From Chloroflexota bacterium (lineage in GTDB: Bacteria > Chloroflexota > Anaerolineae > Anaerolineales > Villigracilaceae), in the NCBI GenBank assembly GCA_037445635.1, contig JBBIKC010000001.1, forward strand, positions 211,595 to 275,594: DNA of 64,000 nucleotides. The letters run 5' to 3'. The notes under the pieces were generated by a model. That model saw nothing but the letters and a program-made list of their open reading frames with translations, was not told the origin of the DNA and did not search any database. Of this stretch, positions 38,729 to 55,732 are shown one piece after another; the first letter of the stretch is position 1, and every line of letters begins with the position of its first letter. The translations under genes were made by a program, and so were the position numbers.

Positions 38729-38736
38729 GTCACCAT

Positions 38737-38769
38737 AAACCCTAAAGGTCTTCGAGACCTTTAGGGTTT
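38737..38769 (+). terminator. palindromic repeat acting as a probable terminator (family AAACCCTAAAGGTCT..AGACCTTTAGGGTTT)
   Basis: 15-bp arms with a 3-nt loop, followed by ATTTAAC. A near-identical copy lies inside hsdR at 50626-50660. Confidence 0.6.
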
Positions 38770-38786
38770 ATTTAACAGGAACCCGC

Positions 38787-46602: not shown

Positions 46603-46695
46603 CCCTCCCCAAATACGACAGGCAAGTTTAGGCGCCAATCAAAATGTAAATGTCGTATTTGGGGAGGGTGTCCGAAGGACGGGTGGGGCGGGGTC
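46603..46695. repeat. long inverted repeat plus G-rich tail at the left edge of the R-M block
   Basis: 18-bp perfect arms CCCTCCCCAAATACGACA / TGTCGTATTTGGGGAGGG separated by 30 nt. The tail GGGTGTCCGAAGGACGGGTGGGGCGGGGT closely matches 54612-54640. Confidence 0.8.
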
Positions 46696-46796
46696 TGCAA
46701 CGAAAAGGTATTGCACGGAGAGGGGGTTTTCGGGTATGCTTGGAAAATCAGTTGGAAGGTTGAAGGTTCAAGGTTGGAAAGTTGGGAACAAGGAAC

Positions 46797-48410
46797 ATGC
46801 CTCCAAAGAAAACGGCAAAAGCCAAAACAAAGAACGGAAACAACGGCGCGGCGCTTGGCATCGAAGCGGAGTTGTGGCAGGCGGCGGATAAACTGCGCGG
46901 GCATCTCGACGCGGCGGATTACAAGTCCGTGGTGTTGGGGTTGATTTTCCTGAAGTATGTCTCCGATATGTTCGAGCAGGTGCGGGCGCGGGTGGAGGCG
47001 GAAGGGCTGGACGATCCGGAGGATAGAGATGTCTATTTGGCGGAACGCGTCTTCTGGGTCCCGAAAGAGGCGAGATGGAAAATCCTGCAGGATAACGCCA
47101 AGCAGGAGTCCATCGGCAATTTGATTGACCAGGCGATGGAAGCCATCGAGCGGGATAATCCCTCGCTGCGGGGGATGCTGCCGAATAATTACGGGCGCGC
47201 CGCGCTGGATAAGCGTCGGCTCGGGGATTTGGTGGACCTCGTCAGCAACAAGATCAACTTCGCAGACGAGGAGAGCCGCAAGCAGGATACGCTCGGACGG
47301 GTGTACGAATATTTCCTGTCGCAGTTTGCCAGCCAGGAGGGACGCAAGGGCGGGGAGTTCTATACGCCGCGCTCGGTCGTGCGCGTGCTGGTGGAGATGC
47401 TCGCGCCGTATAAGGGACGCGTCTTCGATCCGTGCTGTGGAAGCGGCGGGATGTTCGTGCAGAGCGAGAAGTTCGTGGAGGCGCACGGCGGGAAGATCGG
47501 CGATATTTCGATTTACGGACAGGAATCCAATCCCAACACGTTCAAACTGGCGAAGATGAATCTTGCCATCCGCGGCATCGAAGGGGACCTGGGCAAACAG
47601 CCCGCGGACTCGTTCCACAACGACCAGCATCCCGACCTGAAGGCGGATTACATCCTTGCCAACCCGCCGTTCAACATGAGCGATTGGGGCGGCGAGAGTT
47701 TGCGCGAGGACAAACGCTGGAAATACGGCGTTCCGCCTGTGAGCAACGCCAACTTTGCGTGGGTGCAGCATTTCATCCATCATCTTTCGCCGAACGGCAC
47801 GGCGGGATTCGTGCTGGCGAACGGGAGCATGTCGAGCAATACGTCGGGCGAGGGCGAGATTCGCAAAGCCATCATCGAAGACGATTTGGTGGATTGCATG
47901 GTCGCCCTGCCGGGGCAGTTGTTTTACAGCACGCAGATTCCGGTGTGTTTGTGGTTCCTTTCGCGGAAGAAAACCCTCACCCCTAACCCCTCTCCCACAG
48001 GGAGAGGGGGACGTGACCGACGCGGGCAGACGTTGTTCATTGACGCGCGCAAATTGGGAACGTTGACCGACCGCGTCCATCGGGATTTGACGGATGAAGA
48101 CATCGCCAAGATCGCGGGGACGTATCATGCGTGGAAAGGCGACCTCACCCCCAACCCCTCTCCTAAAAGGAGAGGGGAGTACGCAGACATTCCTGGCTTT
48201 TGCAAATCCGTCACCATCGAGGAAATCCGCGCGCAGGGATATGTGCTGACCCCAGGACGCTACGTGGGCGCGGCGGAAGTGGAAGAGGACGACGAGCCTT
48301 TCGCCGAAAAGATGGCGCGCCTGACGAAGGAGTTGGAAGCGCAGTTTGAAGAGAGTAAAAAGCTTGAAAATCTCATCAGGAAAAATCTTGGTCGGATTGA
48401 AACAAAATGA
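46797..48410 (+). CDS. hsdM: Type I restriction-modification system methyltransferase subunit
   Basis: HsdM N-terminal domain ([32 protein letters not shown]). AdoMet motif [12 protein letters not shown]. Catalytic NPPFN. Confidence 0.93.
47975..48016 (+). repeat. nested palindromic element, in-frame in hsdM (copy M1)
   Basis: CTCACCCCTAA-CCCCTCTCCC-ACA-GGGAGAGGGG-GACGTGAC, translated as [15 protein letters not shown]. Confidence 0.85.
48141..48180 (+). repeat. nested palindromic element, in-frame in hsdM (copy M2)
   Basis: GACCTCACCCCCAA-CCCCTCTCC-TAAAA-GGAGAGGGG, translated as [13 protein letters not shown]. Confidence 0.85.
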
Positions 48411-49618
48411 AAGATTCAGTTTATGGGTTAGTGAATGACAATTTAGACGTTGATACTCTGGAAAACCTTTGTGTTCCTGGAGGAATTCAAACGGGTCCTT
48501 TTGGAAGCCAATTACACCAAAAGGATTATTTACCTGTGGGTACACCCATAATCACGGTCGAGCATCTTGGTGAAAATCGTATCTTGCACCAAGATTTACC
48601 ACGTGTTTCAAACACAGACAAAGAAAGACTCTCACGATATATAATGCAAAAAGGGGATATTATTTTCAGCCGTGTAGGTTCTGTTGATCGGCGGGCTTTG
48701 GTTCGACATGAAGAAGATGGATGGCTATTCTCTGGTCGTTGTCTAAGAGTGAGACCCGACCAAACAAAAATAGATTCTGATTACTTATCTTGGTTTTTTG
48801 GGCTTGAAATATTCAGGGATTACATTCGTCGTATTGCAGTCGGTGCGACAATGCCATCTCTCAATACAGAATTACTGAGCAATGTGCCTGTGTTTTTTCC
48901 GCCCCTCCCCGAACAACGCGCCATTGCAGGGATACTCGGCGCGCTGGACGACAAGATCGAACTCAACCGCCGCATGAACCGCACGCTCGAGTCCATGGCG
49001 CGGGCGGTGTTTCGTCAGTGGTTTGTGGAGAATGAGGAGGTTGGGGAGTGGGAGGTTGGTAAATTGGGAGATGTTGCAGAAAACATGAGGCGAAGCGCTA
49101 ATGCGGATGAAATTGAACCCGAAACACATTACATCGGTTTGGAACACATGCCACGCGGAAGTATTGCGCTTTCTGAATGGGGAAATGCGAGTGAATTGGC
49201 AAGTAATAAATTCATTTTCAAAGAGGGCGAATTTCTCTTTGGAAAGTTGAGACCTTACTTTCACAAAGTCGGGATTGCACCAGTTGATGGCGTGTGTTCA
49301 ACTGACATTTTGGTGATTGTGCCAAAGAAGCCAGAATGGTATGGCTATGTTCTTGGTCACATTTCAAGTGTGGAATTAATCAACTATACCAATGCCGCTT
49401 CTACTGGAACGAAAATGCCAAGAACGAACTGGTCAGATATTGCAAATTATGATGTGGCAATTCCACCTGTGGAGAAGGCTAAAGATTACAACGAGATATT
49501 TCTACCAATGGCACAACTTATTCGAGCAAACATTCTAGAATCGCACACGCTGGCGAGTCTGCGGGATAGTCTGCTGCCGAAGTTGATGCGCGGCGAGGTG
49601 AGGGTGAATGGGTTGTAG
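48407..49618 (+). CDS. hsdS: Type I R-M specificity subunit
   Basis: Two AT-richer target-recognition domains are separated by the conserved [29 protein letters not shown] region, with a C-terminal [20 protein letters not shown] overlap with hsdM. Ends in three consecutive TAG codons. Confidence 0.9.
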
Positions 49619-49620
49619 TA

Positions 49621-49667
49621 GTAGGGACACGACAGTGTCGTGTCCCTACGCAATGTCGTGCCCCTAC
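49621..49667 (+). repeat. REP-like hairpin plus half-site immediately upstream of the RAYT gene
   Basis: Perfect 13-bp stem GTAGGGACACGAC-AGT-GTCGTGTCCCTAC (49621-49649), then half-site GTCGTGCCCCTAC (49655-49667). Confidence 0.85.
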
Positions 49668-49693
49668 GCGCCGTGCACACACCCAAACGAGGA

Positions 49694-50227
49694 ATGATGA
49701 AATTCGACCCGCAAAAACACCACCGCCGTTCCATCCGATTGAAGGGATACGATTACACCCAGGCAGGCGCGTATTTCATCACGATTGTCACCTATCAACG
49801 TGAGCCCCTGTTTGGTGAAATCGTGAACGGCGGGATGCAATTATCACCGATGGGTCAGATCGCCGAGGAACATTGGCGCGCCATACCCGAACATTTCCCA
49901 AATGTGGAATTGGGCGCGTATGTGGTCATGCCGAATCATGTGCATGGGATAATCATAATCAATGATGGTAGGGGCACGATATATCGTGCCCCTACGGAAC
50001 AATTTCAAAAACCTGTAACAGGGTCAATACCAACCATCATTCGCACGTACAAGGCATCCGTCACCCGCCGCATCCAAAAAGAATTGAACGAAACCGCCGT
50101 CTGGCAGCGCAACTATTACGAACACATCATCCGTAACGACGAAGAACACAACCGCATCCATTTGTACATCGAATCAAACATTGACAATTGGGTCAACGAC
50201 GAAGAAAATCCTGTAAGTGTGAAATGA
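49694..50227 (+). CDS. HUH/Y1 transposase-like protein (IS200-like, REP-associated tyrosine transposase type)
   Basis: Contains [12 protein letters not shown], the HUH motif in [12 protein letters not shown] and the catalytic Tyr context [11 protein letters not shown]. About 177 aa. Start at ATG 49694 after GAGGA. Its stop overlaps the hsdR ATG. Confidence 0.82.
49968..49995. repeat. REP-like perfect palindrome inside the RAYT coding sequence
   Basis: GTAGGGGCACGATATATCGTGCCCCTAC (28 bp, fully self-complementary), translated in-frame as [10 protein letters not shown]. Confidence 0.9.
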
Positions 50228-53200
50228 TAAAATTCACCGAATCCACCATCGAGCAAGCCGCCATAAACTGGCTCAAAGAACTGGGCTACGACTACGCCTT
50301 CGGTCCTGAGATCGCGTTCGATGGTGAACGCCCCGAACGCGCAGATTATCAGGAACCGCTCCTGCCTGGTCGTCTGCGGGACGCGCTCACACGCCTCAAC
50401 CCCGACCTTCCTCCTACCGCGCGCGAAGAAGCCTTTCGCCAACTGACGCGTCTCGGCAAGCCCTCGCTCTTGCTCAACAACCACGCCTTTCATCATCTGC
50501 TGGTCAACGGTATTGAAGTGGAATATAAGAAGGACGGACGCATGGTCAGCGGGCGGGCGGTTGTGGTGGATTTCGATAACCCCGATAACAACGACTGGCT
50601 GGTCGTCAATCAATATACTGTCACTGAAACCCTAAAGGTCTCCGAGACCTTTAGGGTTTCCAACAGGCGCCCCGACGTGGTGGTCTTCCTCAACGGTCTG
50701 CCGCTGGCGGTCATCGAACTCAAGAACGCCGCCGATGAAAAAGCGACCATCTGGTCGGCGTTCAATCAACTGCAAACCTACAAGCGCGACATCCCCGCCC
50801 TGTTCCACTACAACGAACTGCTCATTATCTCCGACGGCGTGAACGCCCGCATCGGCTCGCTCACCGCCAGCAAGGAATGGTTCCTGCCGTGGAAGACGAT
50901 TGAAGGCGAGACTCAAGCCCCCGCGTCGCTGAGTCAACTCGAAGTCCTGCTGCGAGGCGTGTTCGAGAAACGCCGCTTCCTCGACCTCATCCGCTACTTC
51001 ATCGTCTTCGAGCAGGAACGCGGCGCGCCCACCGTCAAAAAAATTGCGGGCTATCACCAATTCCACGCGGTCAATTACGCGGTGGCTGAAACCATCCGTG
51101 CATCGCATGTAGGACAAATTTCCAATTTGTCCATTGCCGAACTCAAAGGCGTGTACCGCGCCCAACCCATGAAAGGCGGCGAAACGGGCGACCGCCGCAT
51201 CGGCGTGATATGGCACACGCAGGGTTCGGGCAAAAGCCTGACGATGGCGTTTTATGCGGGGCGGCTGGTCCTTCATCCCGCCATGCAAAACCCCACCATC
51301 ATCGTCATCACCGACCGCAACGACCTCGACGACCAACTCTTCGGCACGTTCTCGCGCTGTTCCGAAATCCTGCGTCAAACGCCCGAACAGGCGACGAGCC
51401 GCGAAGACCTGCGGGAAAAACTTAAGGGGCGCATCGCGGGCGGCGTGTTCTTTACCACCATTCAAAAATTCCTTCCCCCCTCTCCCTTTGGGAGAGGGGC
51501 TGAGGGTGAGGGTCTCCCCTCTCCTTCCAGGAGAGGGGATGGAGGTGAGGTCCTCTCCGATCGCCACAACATCATCGTCATTGCGGATGAAGCGCACCGC
51601 AGTCAATACGACTTCATAGACGGCTACGCCCGAGCCATGCGCGATGCCCTTCCCAACGCCTCTTTCATCGGGTTTACTGGCACGCCCATCGAACAGGCGG
51701 ACGCCAACACCCGAGCCGTGTTCGGCGATTACATCAGCGTCTATGACATTCAGCAGGCGGTCGAAGACGGCGCGACGGTCAAAATCTATTACGAAGGTCG
51801 GCTCGCCAAACTGGAACTGGACGAAAAAGAGAAGCCGAAGATTGATCCTGAATTCGACGAGGTCACCGAAGGCGAAGAACTCGAAAAGAAGGAAAAACTC
51901 AAGAGCAAGTGGGCGGCGCTCGAAGCCGTGGTGGGGACCGAAAAGCGCGTGGGCTTGATTGCCAAAGACATCGTTGAGCATTTCGAGAAGCGCCTCGAAG
52001 CCCTGGACGGCAAGGCGATGGTCGTGTGCATGTCCCGCCGCATCTGCGTTGACCTATACAACGCCATCGTCAAACTCCGTCCCGATTGGCATTCAGAGGA
52101 TGACAAGCAGGGTGTCATCAAAATCGTGATGACGGGCAGCGCCTCTGACCCAACAGACTGGCAGGGACACATCCGCACCAAGAAAGCCCGTGAGGATTTA
52201 GCCCTGCGATTCAAAGACCCCGCTGACCCGTTCAAGATCGTCATCGTCCGCGACATGTGGCTGACGGGGTTCGATGTCCCGCCGCTGCACACCATGTACA
52301 TTGACAAGCCCATGCAGGGACACGGTCTCATGCAGGCGATTGCAAGAGTCAATCGGGTGTACCCCAACAAAGAGGGCGGTTTGATTGTGGACTATCTGGG
52401 TCTCGCGTATCACTTGCAGAAAGCCCTTGCGACCTACACCGAAGCGGGGCATCCCGCCGAAATCCCCGACCAGGAGCAGGCGGTTAATGAGTTGCTCAAA
52501 CGTTATGAGATTTGCAAAGGCTTATTACACGGTTTCGACTGGTCGAAATATTTCACAGGGACAGCGCAGGAAAGACTCAACGCGATTCCGCAGGCGATGG
52601 AACACATCCTCCAATTGCCAGACGGCAGAAAACGCTTTCTGGACGCCGTCCGCAGCATGTCGCTTGCCTTTGCGCTGGCGGTCCCTGATGAACGCGCCAT
52701 CGCCATCCGCGACGACGTGGGATTCTTTCAGGCAGTGCGCGCCGCTTTCATCAAGCATACGGTGGAGGGCGGAAAATCGGAAGAGGATTACGAACAGGCG
52801 ATTCGGCAAATCCTATCTCGTGCGGTCTCAGCAGGAGATCAAGTCATTGATATATTCGCCGCCGCGGGCTTGAAGAAACCCGAAATCTCCATTCTTTCGG
52901 ATGAATTTCTGACGGAGATGCGCGGGATGCCGCAAAAGAACCTTGCGATAGAACTGCTCCGCAAACTGCTCAACGACGAACTCAAATCGCGGATGAAGAA
53001 GAATGTGGTGCAGTCGCGCTCCTTCACCGAAATGCTCGAACGCACCATCCGCGCCTACCAAAACCGCACGCTTGAATCGGCGGAAGTCATTGCCGAACTC
53101 ATCAAACTCGCCGAAGAAATGCGAGAGGCACAGAAGCGCGGCGAAAAACTCAACCTGACGGAAGATGAGATTGCCTTCTACGACGCGCTCGAAGTCAACG

Positions 53201-53439
53201 ACAGCGCGGTGAAGGTATTGGGCGATGACACGCTCAAAGCCATCGCCCGCGAACTCGTGGAAACCGTTCGCAACAACGTTACGATTGACTGGACAGTACG
53301 CACATCTGTCCGCGCAAACTTGCGGCGCATGGTCAAGCGCATCCTGCGCAGGCATGGCTATCCGCCCGATAAACAGGAGAAAGCCACTCAAACTGTGCTG
53401 GAGCAGGCTGAGGTCATTGCGCGGGATTGGGCGGGATGA
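50224..53439 (+). CDS. hsdR: Type I R-M restriction/helicase subunit
   Basis: N-terminus [22 protein letters not shown]. Nuclease motif RRPD...VIELK. Helicase motifs [12 protein letters not shown] ([10 protein letters not shown]), GFTGTP and QAIARVNR. 1071 aa. Confidence 0.93.
50626..50660. repeat. palindromic element in-frame in the hsdR nuclease domain
   Basis: GAAACCCTAAAGGTCT-CCG-AGACCTTTAGGGTTTC, translated as [12 protein letters not shown] immediately before RRPD. Near-identical to the terminator-like copy at 38737-38769. Confidence 0.88.
51470..51552 (+). repeat. two tandem nested palindromic elements in-frame in hsdR
   Basis: CCCCTCTCCC-TTT-GGGAGAGGGG, then CTGAGGGTGAGGGT, then CCCCTCTCC-TTCCA-GGAGAGGGG, then ATGGAGGTGAGGTC. 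Translated as [26 protein letters not shown], between TTIQKF and the DEAH box. Confidence 0.88.
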
Positions 53440-53444
53440 TTTTC

Positions 53445-53470
53445 AAGAGACAGCCTCGCGGCTGTCTCTT
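53445..53470 (+). terminator. hairpin after hsdR
   Basis: 11-bp stem AAGAGACAGCC/GGCTGTCTCTT with loop TCGC. The T-tract is weak. Confidence 0.5.
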
Positions 53471-53488
53471 GTCTTATAATGTCTCGCA

Positions 53489-54958
53489 ATGAACCTCGCC
53501 CGCGCGCTACGCGTCCTTCCCCAATTGCTCCCTTCGCGTACTTCGCCCCTTCGCGGTGAAGCAATCGCCCTCGTCGGCGCGGGCGGCAAGACCACTGCCC
53601 TCTTCCAACTCGCATGGCAATTCCAATCGCAAATCGAAAATCATCAATCGTCAATCGTTACCACCACCACCCACCTCGGCGCATGGCAGGTTGCACAGGC
53701 CGACCATCACCTCATCGTCACCGAAGACACTCCCCTGCCCGAACTCGACACACTTGAAGGCGTTATCCTCGTCACGGGCGCATTGGACGGCGACCGCTTC
53801 CCCTCCCCGCCGCGCCAGACCCTCGACCATCTGCGTGACCACTGCGCGGCGCGCGGCCTGTCCCTGCTCATCGAAGCCGACGGCGCGCGCGGACGTCCCC
53901 TCAAAGCGCCCGCCGCGCACGAGCCTGCCATCCCAGATTTTGTGGATACGGTCATCGTGGTCGCTGGCTTGAGTGGACTGGGAAAACCGCTGACCGACGA
54001 CTTCGTCCATCGCCCGCATCGCTTCTCGACCTTGAGCGGGCTGCCGCTTAACCAGCCGGTCACACCCGAGGCATTGACCCGCGTCCTGACTCACCCCGAT
54101 GGCGGACTCAAAAACATCCCGCCCGGCGCGCGCCGCGTGACCCTGCTCAACCAGGCCGACACACCCGAATTACAATCCATCGGCGGCAGGATGGCGAAGT
54201 CCCTGCTAAATGAATTCGATTCTGTCATTGTCTGCGCCCTTCAACCCTTCGACACAGCTCAGGGCAAGCCTTCCAACTTTCAAACTTTCGAACTGACAGC
54301 AGGCATCATCCTCGCCGCGGGCGCGTCCGAACGTTTTGGCCAGCCCAAGCAACTGCTCGACTGGCGCGGCCAGCCCTTCGTACGCGCTGTTGCACAGACT
54401 GCGCTGAACGCGGGACTCTCGCCCGTGATCGTCGTCACCGGCGCGTATGCAGACCAGGTCGAGGCCGCGCTCCGCGATCTGCCCGTGACCATCGTCCGCA
54501 ACGAGGGCTGGCAGGAAGGCCAGGCCTCTTCGATCCGCGCGGGGATAAGATCCCTCACCCTGCCCCTCCCCGTCCCTCCCATCCCCTCTCCCAGTGGGAG
54601 AGGGGATGGGAGGGTGCCCGAAGGGCGGGTGGGGAGGGGTGAGGTCGGTTCCGCCCTCTTCCTCCTCGCCGACCAGCCGCACATCCCCGTCAATGTGATT
54701 CAAGCGCTGACGGCACATCACAGCCGCGAGTTGTATCCCATCCTCGCGCCGCTGGTGATGATGGAACAGCGCGCCAACCCCGTGCTCTTCGACCGAGTCA
54801 CATTCCCCGATCTGCTCGCGCTGAGAGGCGATGTCGGCGGCCGCGCCCTCTTCTCGAAATATCCCGTCGAATACCTGCCCTGGCACGATGATCGTCTCCT
54901 GCTCGACGTGGACAAACCCGAAGATTATCAACGGCTGGTGGAAGATGAGACACTCTAA
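53489..54958 (+). CDS. YqeC-like P-loop accessory protein fused to a MocA-like molybdenum cofactor cytidylyltransferase domain
   Basis: N-terminal AIALVGAGGKTTALFQLA...SSIVTTTTHLG (YqeC family pattern). C-terminal half AGIILAAGASERFGQPKQLL...VIVVTG...LLADQP (MobA/MocA NTP-transferase). Confidence 0.78.
   Translation: MNLARALRVLPQLLPSRTSPLRGEAIALVGAGGKTTALFQLAWQFQSQIENHQSSIVTTTTHLGAWQVAQADHHLIVTEDTPLPELDTLEGVILVTGALDGDRFPSPPRQTLDHLRDHCAARGLSLLIEADGARGRPLKAPAAHEPAIPDFVDTVIVVAGLSGLGKPLTDDFVHRPHRFSTLSGLPLNQPVTPEALTRVLTHPDGGLKNIPPGARRVTLLNQADTPELQSIGGRMAKSLLNEFDSVIVCALQPFDTAQGKPSNFQTFELTAGIILAAGASERFGQPKQLLDWRGQPFVRAVAQTALNAGLSPVIVVTGAYADQVEAALRDLPVTIVRNEGWQEGQASSIRAGIRSLTLPLPVPPIPSPSGRGDGRVPEGRVGRGEVGSALFLLADQPHIPVNVIQALTAHHSRELYPILAPLVMMEQRANPVLFDRVTFPDLLALRGDVGGRALFSKYPVEYLPWHDDRLLLDVDKPEDYQRLVEDETL
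54551..54646 (+). repeat. long nested palindromic element in-frame in the MocA domain
   Basis: CCTCACCC..CCCTCCCAT-CCCCTCTCCC-AGT-GGGAGAGGGG-ATGGGAGGG..GGGGTGAGGTC, translated as LTLPLPVPPIPSPSGRGDGRVPEGRVGRGEV. Confidence 0.88.
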
Positions 54959-55105
54959 CCTCGCGCCGAGCACGGAGGGTCAAGTAGGCGGTGTGGCCTT
55001 GATACACAAAGAACGCTACTCGACCATCACCGCCGTATCAAGACCCGTAGATGAAGCGCGATAACAAGAATTCCGTTTGAGTCCTTCGTGGCTAATAGAG
55101 ACTCC

Positions 55106-55732
55106 ATGATTACCGCCGTCGTACTCGCCGCAGGCGAATCCAAACGCATGGGTCAGCCCAAGATGCTCCTGCCCTGGGGCGGAAGCACCGTGCTTGGTCA
55201 CGTCCTCACGGTGCTTCAAGCCGCCGAAGTGGACGACATCCTGGTCGTCACCGGCGGCGCGCGGGAGCAGGTGGAGGCCGTCGCCCGCGAACACAACGCG
55301 CGGACCGTCTTCAATGCAGATTACGCGCGGGGCGAGATGCTATCTTCCATTCAAATGGGTCTTCGCCTACTAATATCTCCCCTCTCCCCTTCAGGGAGAG
55401 GGGTCGGGGGTGAGGGTCAGGGTGAGGTCGACGCGGCCCTCCTCGTCCTCGGCGACCAGCCCCAGGTCCAGGAAGGAAGCGTGCGCGCTGTCCTCGCTGC
55501 GTATCGCAGGAGTCAATCCAATCTCATCGTCCCATCCTACCAAATGCGGCGCGGACATCCATGGCTGGCAGCGCGCCCGTTGTGGGATGAAATCCTGCAA
55601 ATGCAATTCCCTCAGACGCCGCGCGATTTTTTGAACAGGCACGCGGCCGAGATCGAATATGTCAACCTGGATACATCTACCATCCTCGCCGACCTCGACA
55701 CTCCCGAAGACTACTTGAAATCGCGGCTATAG
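55106..55732 (+). CDS. MocA-like molybdenum cofactor cytidylyltransferase (second copy)
   Basis: Contains ITAVVLAAGESKRMGQPKMLLPW, ILVVTGG and LVLGDQP. Start at ATG 55106. Confidence 0.8.
   Translation: MITAVVLAAGESKRMGQPKMLLPWGGSTVLGHVLTVLQAAEVDDILVVTGGAREQVEAVAREHNARTVFNADYARGEMLSSIQMGLRLLISPLSPSGRGVGGEGQGEVDAALLVLGDQPQVQEGSVRAVLAAYRRSQSNLIVPSYQMRRGHPWLAARPLWDEILQMQFPQTPRDFLNRHAAEIEYVNLDTSTILADLDTPEDYLKSRL
55377..55429 (+). repeat. nested palindromic element in-frame in the second MocA gene
   Basis: CCCCTCTCCC-CTTCA-GGGAGAGGGG-TCGGGGGTGAGGGTCAGGGTGAGGTC, translated as SPLSPSGRGVGGEGQGEV. It sits at the position homologous to the insert in the upstream MocA domain. Confidence 0.88.

Follow-up and report, generated by a model that had tools for sequence, protein, structure and literature searches.

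Hairpin-plus-tail repeats of the BoxC/TM type in frame within restriction-modification and MocA-like genes of a Chloroflexota genome, and their association with DUF559 endonuclease genes

Introduction

The BoxC repeats, or PIT elements, were described by Bachellier and co-workers in the 1990s and by Hoyne and Maher in 2000 (both cited in PMC4666352), and Holder et al. (2015, Nucleic Acids Research 43:10126; PMC4666352) equated them with the intrastrand triplex motif (TM, TM_ECO), of which they reported 23 copies in E. coli K-12 and occurrence in more than 260 genomes. A triplex forms in vitro on the single strand, as circular dichroism and nuclear magnetic resonance demonstrated. The E. coli copies are "always located intergenically", their flanking genes have no common function, and their loci are hypervariable among strains, for which slippage or repair was proposed as the cause; earlier work cited in the same paper found no promoter or terminator activity of these motifs in E. 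coli. The present study concerns a stretch of 64,000 nucleotides, here called the window, from Chloroflexota bacterium (Anaerolineales, Villigracilaceae; assembly GCA_037445635.1, contig JBBIKC010000001.1, positions 211,595 to 275,594), in which six hairpins resembling those of TM lie in frame inside hsdM, hsdR, a YqeC-MocA fusion and a second MocA-like gene, and also the relation of such hairpins to endonuclease genes of the DUF559 family.

Results and discussion

The pattern CCCCTCTCC-N3-6-GGAGAGGGG gave five exact matches in the window, at 47987, 48155, 51477, 51516 and 54583, and a sixth perfect hairpin, with a loop of 7 nt, lies in the second MocA gene (Table 1). Dinucleotide-preserving shuffles of the window contained no such hairpin, and GGAGAGGGG alone occurs 13 times against 0.6 expected. 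All six hairpins are within long plus-strand open reading frames (ORFs), two in hsdM, a tandem pair in hsdR and one in each of the other two genes, and the reading frame is unbroken in every case, which bears out the original prediction, made from the letters of the window, of in-frame hairpins in these genes. The host ORFs were recognized with Pfam and NCBIfam.

Table 1. Host genes, TM units and related elements of the window
Feature	Position	Strand	Details
Related intergenic element	46603..46695	+	Hairpin with 18-bp arms 46603-46668, base CCCTCCCC/GGGGAGGG; mini-hairpin linker GTCCGAAGGAC 46670-46680; tail GGGTGGGGCGGGGT 46681-46694
Isolated GGAGAGGGG half-site	46717..46725	+	Upstream of hsdM; possibly a remnant
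hsdM	46797..48410	+	Host gene (Pfam, NCBIfam)
TM unit 1 in hsdM, loop site M1	47974..48009	-	Hairpin 47987-48009; linker 47984-47986; mirror tail, reverse complement CCCTCACCCC, 47974-47983
TM unit 2 in hsdM, loop site M2	48141..48177	-	Hairpin 48155-48177; tail as reverse complement 48143-48152
hsdR	50224..53439	+	Host gene (Pfam, NCBIfam)
TM unit 3 in hsdR site 3, first of tandem pair	51475..51512	+	Hairpin 51477-51499; linker CTG; tail AGGGTGAGGG 51503-51512
TM unit 4 in hsdR, second of tandem pair	51515..51552	+	Hairpin 51515-51539; degenerate tail AGGTGAGGTC 51543-51552
YqeC + MocA-like nucleotidyltransferase fusion	53489..54958	+	Host gene (Pfam, NCBIfam)
Compound TM in YqeC-MocA fusion (54.6-kb copy)	54551..54646	+	19-bp hairpin 54574-54614; mini-hairpin linker GCCCGAAGGGC 54616-54626; 18-nt mirror tail 54627-54644; extra left outer arm 54553-54570
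Second MocA-like nucleotidyltransferase	55106..55732	+	Host gene (Pfam, NCBIfam, AlphaFold model)
TM unit in second MocA gene	55376..55429	+	Hairpin 55379-55403; tail GGGGGTGAGGG 55406-55416; second tail copy 55420-55429; translated SPLSPSGRGVGGEGQGEV

The unit consists of a C-rich arm, a loop of 3–7 nt, a G-rich arm, a linker of about 3 nt and a tail of G, A and T which mirrors the G-rich arm. It is asymmetric, the linker of 2–3 nt and the tail GGGGTGAGG(G/T) standing at one side of each unit only; the tail GGGGTGAGG(G) follows a 2–3-nt linker in four window units and is degenerate in the second hsdR unit, which lies about 10 codons 5' of the DEAH box. In hsdM the tail is on the left, as the reverse complement CCTCACCCC, and in hsdR and the second MocA gene it is on the right, so that the copies stand in both orientations relative to transcription. 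Because the hsdM units align with those of hsdR, MocA and E. coli only after reverse-complementing, the original prediction that all units share one orientation was abandoned, as was that of nested outer arms (GACCTCACCC...GGGTGAGGTC): in five of the six units there is a single outer arm and no nested stem, this arm being a mirror copy of the 3' stem arm and not a pairing partner. Outer arms on both sides are confined to the 54.6-kb compound copy. Two other interpretations of the tail, as the decayed half of a nested palindrome and as a G-quadruplex signal, were dropped, since the A-to-T correspondences in A/T-containing stems fit the mirror (triplex) rule. When translated, the six units yield Pro/Ser/Gly/Arg/Glu-rich linkers, with P-S-P-x-G-R-G from the palindromic core on either strand. 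Folding with ViennaRNA, which was limited to the hairpins, returned the expected structures for single-stranded DNA of the units; the 54.6-kb copy forms a compound structure of 96 nt (DNA -44 kcal/mol, z = -7.9).

Base-for-base alignment was obtained between the window units and three E. coli TM_ECO sequences (Table 1 of PMC4666352). All six units possess the C-rich/G-rich hairpin of CCCTCTCC...GGAGAGGG type, and the window tails provide the third segment mirroring the purine arm, with which G*GC, A*AT or T*AT triads are possible. As judged from sequence, the six hairpins are members of the BoxC / PIT element / TM family. A pan-bacterial scan with one genome per species returned at least 120 stretches, and the matches listed include Planctomycetota, Bacteroidota, Alpha-, Beta- and Gammaproteobacteria, Cyanobacteria, Chloroflexota, Acidobacteriota, Myxococcota and others. 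The tail is present on exactly one side in about 105 of 145 copies, though the pattern searched for did not include it, and the commonest linker length across the family is 3 nt. Stem G faces tail G at 965 of 984 positions, while stem A faces tail A 199 times, tail T 164 times and anything else 11 times. The mirror relation was found in 45% of purine-rich arm/flank combinations as against 8.8% with the flank shuffled, and stem and tail covary (GGGAGAAGGG with GGGGATGAGGG, GGGGGAAGG with GGATGGGGG; permutation p = 0.0005). Mirror rule and covariation together are the signature of a predicted purine-motif intrastrand triplex. Full hairpin-plus-tail units also occur in at least 120 viral or proviral contigs of IMG/VR (L209–L328), two of which carry a unit-flanked DUF559 gene. 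Tandem TM arrays were noted in a Bacteroidales metagenome-assembled genome (MAG), with a period of 78 bp (L009, 60–237), and as runs of about 42 nt inside an open frame of an Anaerolineales MAG (L081, 444–802).

The intergenic element upstream of hsdM is a relative of the 54.6-kb copy, as had been predicted: the segment GGGTGyCCGAAGGrCGGGTGGGG is present in both, and what they have in common is a mini-hairpin, GYCCGAAGGRC, followed by a G-rich tail. This mini-hairpin, seen also in L079 and L139, takes the place of the usual 3-nt linker and looks like a small module nested within the element. The 54.6-kb palindrome left a trace in a short-read assembly, GCA_034434055.1, which shares identical MocA and HsdR proteins with the window: contig DAOTZX010000022.1 ends at window position 54600 and DAOTZX010000013.1 starts at 54594 (loci L001, L329), both breaks falling within a few bases of the 3-nt loop (54593–54595) at the centre of the palindrome. 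TM repeats fragment assemblies, and in this one the YqeC-MocA gene is split into two partial calls.

The host proteins were compared with 120 orthologues each among the matches listed (HsdR 73–88% identity, MocA 56–80%, HsdM about 79–89%), most of them from Chloroflexota/Anaerolineales MAGs. The window segments coincide with short variable loops which are empty in most of these orthologues. At HsdR site 3, where the window has its tandem TM units, the empty form is TIQKFM-PTAESGGP-LSDRHN; at HsdM sites M1 and M2 and in the MocA loop, each with a TM unit in the window, the empty forms are WFLSRNK-KNRNGKTLFIDAR, YHAWKDG-KKYEDVAGFCKS and GLRSLK-AEAEAALICLGDQP, respectively. The view that the segments are insertions relative to orthologues was thereby upheld; orthologues keeping the peptide without DNA palindromy were looked for in the alignments and did not appear. 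Both MocA domains hold their insert in the homologous loop, ahead of the LGDQP/LADQP motif, again as foreseen. In other orthologues the same loops are filled by different palindrome-encoded peptides, among them GTAG-type REPs (VGAIHESPL..., VGAGLRPAPT...), a DPKGLKRPLGS family, one other palindrome family, and TM units in other frames. When a loop at least 5 residues above the modal length was counted as occupied (120–121 aligned sequences per site), longer loops numbered 33 at HsdR site 3 (17 TM-like), 54 at HsdM M1 (10 TM-like), 51 at HsdM M2 (7 TM-like) and 60 in the MocA loop (11 TM-like). When the hsdR DNA was aligned codon by codon with that of an orthologue whose sites are empty (81% nucleotide identity), and with the nearest relative, the loop proved at each site to have been replaced and not simply interrupted.

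The expected location in surface loops was supported by an AlphaFold model of the second MocA protein (mean predicted local distance difference test score, pLDDT, 82; most of the fold above 80). The insert, residues 91–108, forms a low-confidence loop between a helix (77–90) and a strand (110–114), with pLDDT below 50 at residues 97–104; apart from this loop, only the C-terminal tail (192–208) falls below 50. As orthologues are empty, or carry other palindromic repeats, in these same loops, the units are, on the evidence of the alignments, recent and recurrent insertions or replacements in permissive loops.

This pattern bears on whether the inserts are kept because they are useful, either as mRNA structures or Shine-Dalgarno-like pause sites that would tune translation or decay, or as hypervariable surface loops by which restriction enzymes would evade phage anti-restriction proteins. 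Folded as RNA, a single unit reaches -21.7 kcal/mol and the compound copy -82 kcal/mol, which makes the hairpins very stable; the G-rich strand holds GGAGG/GGTGA-like strings, and restriction-modification (R-M) proteins are heavily over-represented among the hosts. However, these loops are vacant in many close orthologues and filled with unrelated sequence in others, the hosts also include MocA, aminoacyl-tRNA synthetases, MetH and chorismate synthase, the units occur in both orientations, and promoter or terminator activity was missing in E. coli (earlier work cited in PMC4666352). We regard retention for usefulness as very unlikely.

A perfect in-frame record can be approached through the frames that the repeat itself leaves open. 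For this purpose 490 distinct natural units, each a hairpin with its tail, were compiled. Five of the six frames are free of stops in 71% of them and no unit has all six open, because the tail holds TGA in one frame. Natural units are 32–37 nt long and multiples of three are not preferred. From these lengths and frame statistics it follows that a random insertion has about a one-in-four chance of sparing the frame of its host. The all-in-frame record in intact genes is best explained as what purifying selection would leave: a copy would survive only where its position is tolerated, its frame is open and it adds a net multiple of three nucleotides, and such survival would account for the perfect record. 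The listed orthologues display a continuum of occupied and empty loops.

The original prediction had offered selection on insert length and phase, or removal at the RNA or protein level; the first part fits the unit statistics and the second found no support. In favor of intron- or intein-like removal after transcription or translation there is the in-frame placement in conserved enzymes, its sole support. Against it, the inserts lie about 4–18 residues above the modal loop, far under intein size, they lack Cys/Ser...His-Asn splice junctions, and the residues flanking them are not conserved. Neither intein splicing blocks nor self-splicing RNA was detected in the window inserts. A search of Rfam in e-value mode over 46–56.5 kb gave generic microRNA-like hairpin matches and a 17-bit match to Whalefall-1, all far below threshold, with no intron or other family reaching it. 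Removal of the inserts is scarcely credible.

All ORFs within 2 kb of hairpins were clustered across 118 cross-phylum loci. A single protein family recurred, DUF559 (PF04480; Pfam), a Vsr-like PD-(D/E)XK endonuclease. The Vsr/DUF559 clade includes the homing endonuclease I-Bth0305I (PMC3424549), and for a DUF559 protein of Caulobacter damage to DNA in vivo has been reported (PMC12907096). The hairpin-selected loci contain seven genomic and two viral DUF559 genes; all adjoin units and eight lie between two units, while in one locus (L003) the gene is flanked by one exact and one degenerate unit. The putative catalytic residues (D/E/D; Asp/Glu/Asp) do not vary among seven cassettes. The DUF559 gene of E. 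coli K-12, ycjD, has its stop codon inside a degenerate unit; a partial duplication of the 3' end of the gene follows, and then TM_ECO #9.

The reciprocal test employed 80 metagenomic loci chosen only by similarity to DUF559, the query being an alignment of four sequences. The TM hairpin is present within 130 nt in 39 of the 80, and on both sides in 25; when any perfect hairpin of at least 7 bp was accepted, 57 loci had one downstream of the gene and 50 had one upstream. Up to 150 nt from the DUF559 domain the TM hairpin has a density of 3.29 per kb, as against 0.10 in the rest of the same loci, an enrichment of about 32-fold (binomial p = 2e-50). Loci lacking the exact stem often have one and the same variant stem on both sides of the gene. 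The stem family is the same on both sides in 39 of 51 two-hairpin cassettes, and in 10 of those 39 the loops, a part which otherwise varies, are reverse-complementary; flanking pairs are mostly inverted (16 vs 6).

The DUF559 cassettes are themselves found inside host proteins. In 21 of the 80 loci the open frame extends 90 codons or more to either side of DUF559, and Pfam assigned the hosts to three groups: R-M proteins, namely HsdM (5), an EcoEI-type HsdR, HsdS, an N6/N4 methyltransferase, a MmeI-like enzyme, a Type ISP enzyme and DUF1156; the aminoacyl-tRNA synthetases LeuRS (several), IleRS and MetRS; and the metabolic proteins MetH (2), chorismate synthase, DegT aminotransferase and GATase. 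In-frame cassettes in MetRS, LeuRS, IleRS, MetH, chorismate synthase and DegT aminotransferase (L010, L021, L160, L162, L166, L134, L146, L141, L183) come from several phyla and have no surrounding intein or intron. Alignment to the window HsdM placed cassettes at site M1 in L126, L163, L186 and L202, and a complete cassette in L135 is at site M2, the position of TM unit 2 in the window. In L153 a cassette stands directly after TTIQKF, that is, at HsdR site 3, one base out of frame with the upstream part of hsdR. The window copies are gene-less units, sharing both the unit and the host-protein sites with complete cassettes elsewhere. Another nuclease domain was met with inside this restriction enzyme family: an HsdR orthologue of 1157 amino acids (P0080) contains, in frame in its C-terminal part, a GIY-YIG domain (PF01541) of 94 residues, at about residue 769 in the numbering of the window protein.

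Taken as a whole, the best explanation is that the window carries TM units in permissive loops, that selection has kept those which are tolerated, and that they are solo relatives of a DUF559 cassette; we assign this reading a probability of roughly 0.65. The window units would most likely be gene-less ("solo", nonautonomous) relatives of a unit-DUF559-unit cassette. DUF559 acting in trans is the candidate nuclease for the nick or break that would lead to copying, in a role which may be homing-like or RAYT-like, and the form recognized may be the triplex or the hairpin of the single strand. A wider proposal is put forward more tentatively, at somewhat less than even odds: that BoxC/TM repeats could serve a selfish cassette, driven by the Vsr-like DUF559 endonuclease, as its cis-acting ends or targets, that this cassette and its gene-less derivatives would colonize proteins in frame with the hairpins as translatable linkers, that R-M enzymes and aminoacyl-tRNA synthetases would be the preferred hosts, and that the window would represent the gene-less form at three hot spots.

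Several observations weigh against a mobile cassette. The 64-kb window is without a DUF559 gene, and a search for DUF559 motifs found none in the 360 fetched orthologues (the closest 120 per host protein). About half of the DUF559 loci are without an exact stem, many of these having variant stems, and the flanking arrangement varies, with tails directed inward, outward or in direct repeat. The association could reflect DUF559 genes lodging at such repeats, not moving them. Neither in the hsdR loops nor in the E. coli tauD-hemB spacer could a clean empty/filled junction be defined, or a target-site duplication of the kind that, with terminal inverted repeats, marks a MITE. In E. coli, moreover, TM is not associated with transposons, phages or plasmids, and stable triplex was found neither in duplex DNA nor by footprinting in vivo (PMC4666352).

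The tauD-hemB spacer (L206–L208) exists in three alleles: one carries TM_ECO #5 in a segment of about 105 nt, a second has a 51-nt insertion in addition to this segment, and the third is an unrelated 39 nt holding a REP-like hairpin. Whole segments are swapped between strains here, with no clean insertion.

The main rival requires no dedicated enzyme. The units would be structure-prone sequences whose spread and turnover are due to replication slippage, template switching and homologous (allelic) exchange of variable spacers and loops, and DUF559 would merely land beside the units or use them as expression signals. Our filled-versus-empty comparisons, all of which resemble segment replacement and not clean insertion, count for this rival and add to the case against the cassette, as do the slippage or repair already proposed for the hypervariable E. 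coli loci (PMC4666352) and the several unrelated palindrome families in the same loops. On the other side, a hairpin-plus-tail of about 35 nt which is near-identical across many phyla is hard to account for without horizontal spread of a discrete unit; the recurrence of one variant stem on both sides of cassettes, together with the reverse-complementary loops, is far above chance; and enrichment adjoining DUF559 is 32-fold. Spread without an enzyme is, in our estimate, unlikely, and the strongest competitor of the solo-unit reading.

The operon also holds a candidate enzyme of another type between hsdS and hsdR. The ORF at 49694–50227 matches NCBIfam REP_Tyr_transpos with 64.9 bits against a cut-off of 80 and possesses HVH and Y motifs. 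A GTAG palindrome, GTAGGGACACGACAGTGTCGTGTCCCTAC, lies upstream of it (49621–49649) and a second is in frame within it (49968–49995). A RAYT-like C-terminus with 89% identity is also found upstream of hsdR in an orthologue locus (L123), which makes it a stable resident of this operon. The units could then be REP elements moved by this RAYT-like Y1 transposase, and palindromes do crowd the region. Yet the palindromes that flank and occupy the gene belong to a different family, the flanks of the six TM units bear no consistent GTAG or CGTC tag, and tblastn with the window RAYT-like protein found no match in the 118 TM-selected loci. Mobilization by this enzyme is highly improbable.

Two further palindromes are in frame in hsdR. 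One, at 50626–50660, belongs to a second family (GAAACCCTAAAGGTCTC/GAGACCTTTAGGGTTTC) with perfect arms of 17 bp; a sister copy is intergenic at 38735–38771, and in various orthologues members of this family fill HsdR sites 1 and 3 as well as M1 and M2 of HsdM. The other, GTAGGACAAATTTCCAATTTGTCC (51109–51132), is translated as VGQISNLS, and the corresponding loop of orthologues has GTAG-type REPs (VGAEHRSA, VGAGLRPAPT) or nothing.

Significance

BoxC/TM has been an orphan repeat family for about 30 years, and questions about its function and mode of spread date from the 1990s. If the proposed explanation is right, the family acquires a concrete candidate partner enzyme, and the single DUF559 gene (ycjD) and 23 TM copies of E. 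coli K-12 make the proposal testable in a model organism. High-density repeats in proteins would confer hypervariability on certain loops, in restriction enzymes and methyltransferases as well as in cofactor enzymes; they would also break short-read assemblies and inflate the number of "hypothetical" low-complexity peptides in annotations. A nuclease domain in frame in essential genes (LeuRS, IleRS, MetRS, MetH), without intein or intron, would be an unusual route of persistence for selfish DNA, and such in-frame cassettes would give rise to new domain architectures. The repeat as such was already described. No link of BoxC/TM with DUF559 or ycjD was found in the accessible literature, PMC4666352 makes no mention of DUF559, endonucleases or in-frame copies, and a literature search for REP in Anaerolineae gave no match; as far as the accessible literature shows, the dense in-frame occupation of protein loops and the link to DUF559 look new.

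Comparison with known systems

The closest system is TM itself (PMC4666352), with the same hairpin, CCCTCTCC(C)-loop-GGGAGAGGG, followed by YYR-GGGGTGAGGG, in multiple dispersed copies, and with a mirror (triplex) relation between stem and tail which was reproduced in this analysis. In E. coli TM is reported to be intergenic, whereas all six complete units of the window are intragenic and in frame, location not being a structural criterion; and where E. coli TM is reported to have no mobile link and no common neighbor, the present survey found viral contigs and the recurrent neighbor DUF559.

The Rickettsia palindromic elements (RPE) and intragenic REPs (Ogata et al. 2000, cited in Di Nocera et al. 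2013, PMC3733652) are likewise in-frame palindromes in functional genes. Their encoded peptides are tolerated, DNA-metabolism genes are often the host, and dimers or clusters occur (PMC3733652), as with the window units. The TM units of the window differ in being of unrelated sequence, in having no GTAG/CGTC tag, in being shorter than RPE-1 and in possessing a mirror-repeat tail; TM is pan-bacterial, whereas RPE and intragenic REPs are lineage-specific.

REP-RAYT "REPtrons" resemble the DUF559 cassettes in that a small nuclease gene lies between inverted hairpins which are also present as gene-less copies, and the ratio of one gene to many repeats, one ycjD to 23 TM copies in E. coli, is REPtron-like. 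The enzyme is an HUH/Y1 transposase in REPtrons and a Vsr-like PD-(D/E)XK protein, a candidate by association, in the case of DUF559. Homing endonuclease genes, finally, share with the DUF559 cassettes a selfish nuclease gene in conserved hosts at the same sites across lineages, and I-Bth0305I furnishes a precedent for the Vsr-like fold in a homing enzyme (PMC3424549). The DUF559 cassette differs from them in having no intron or intein: it is translated through as part of the host protein, with the units as linkers.

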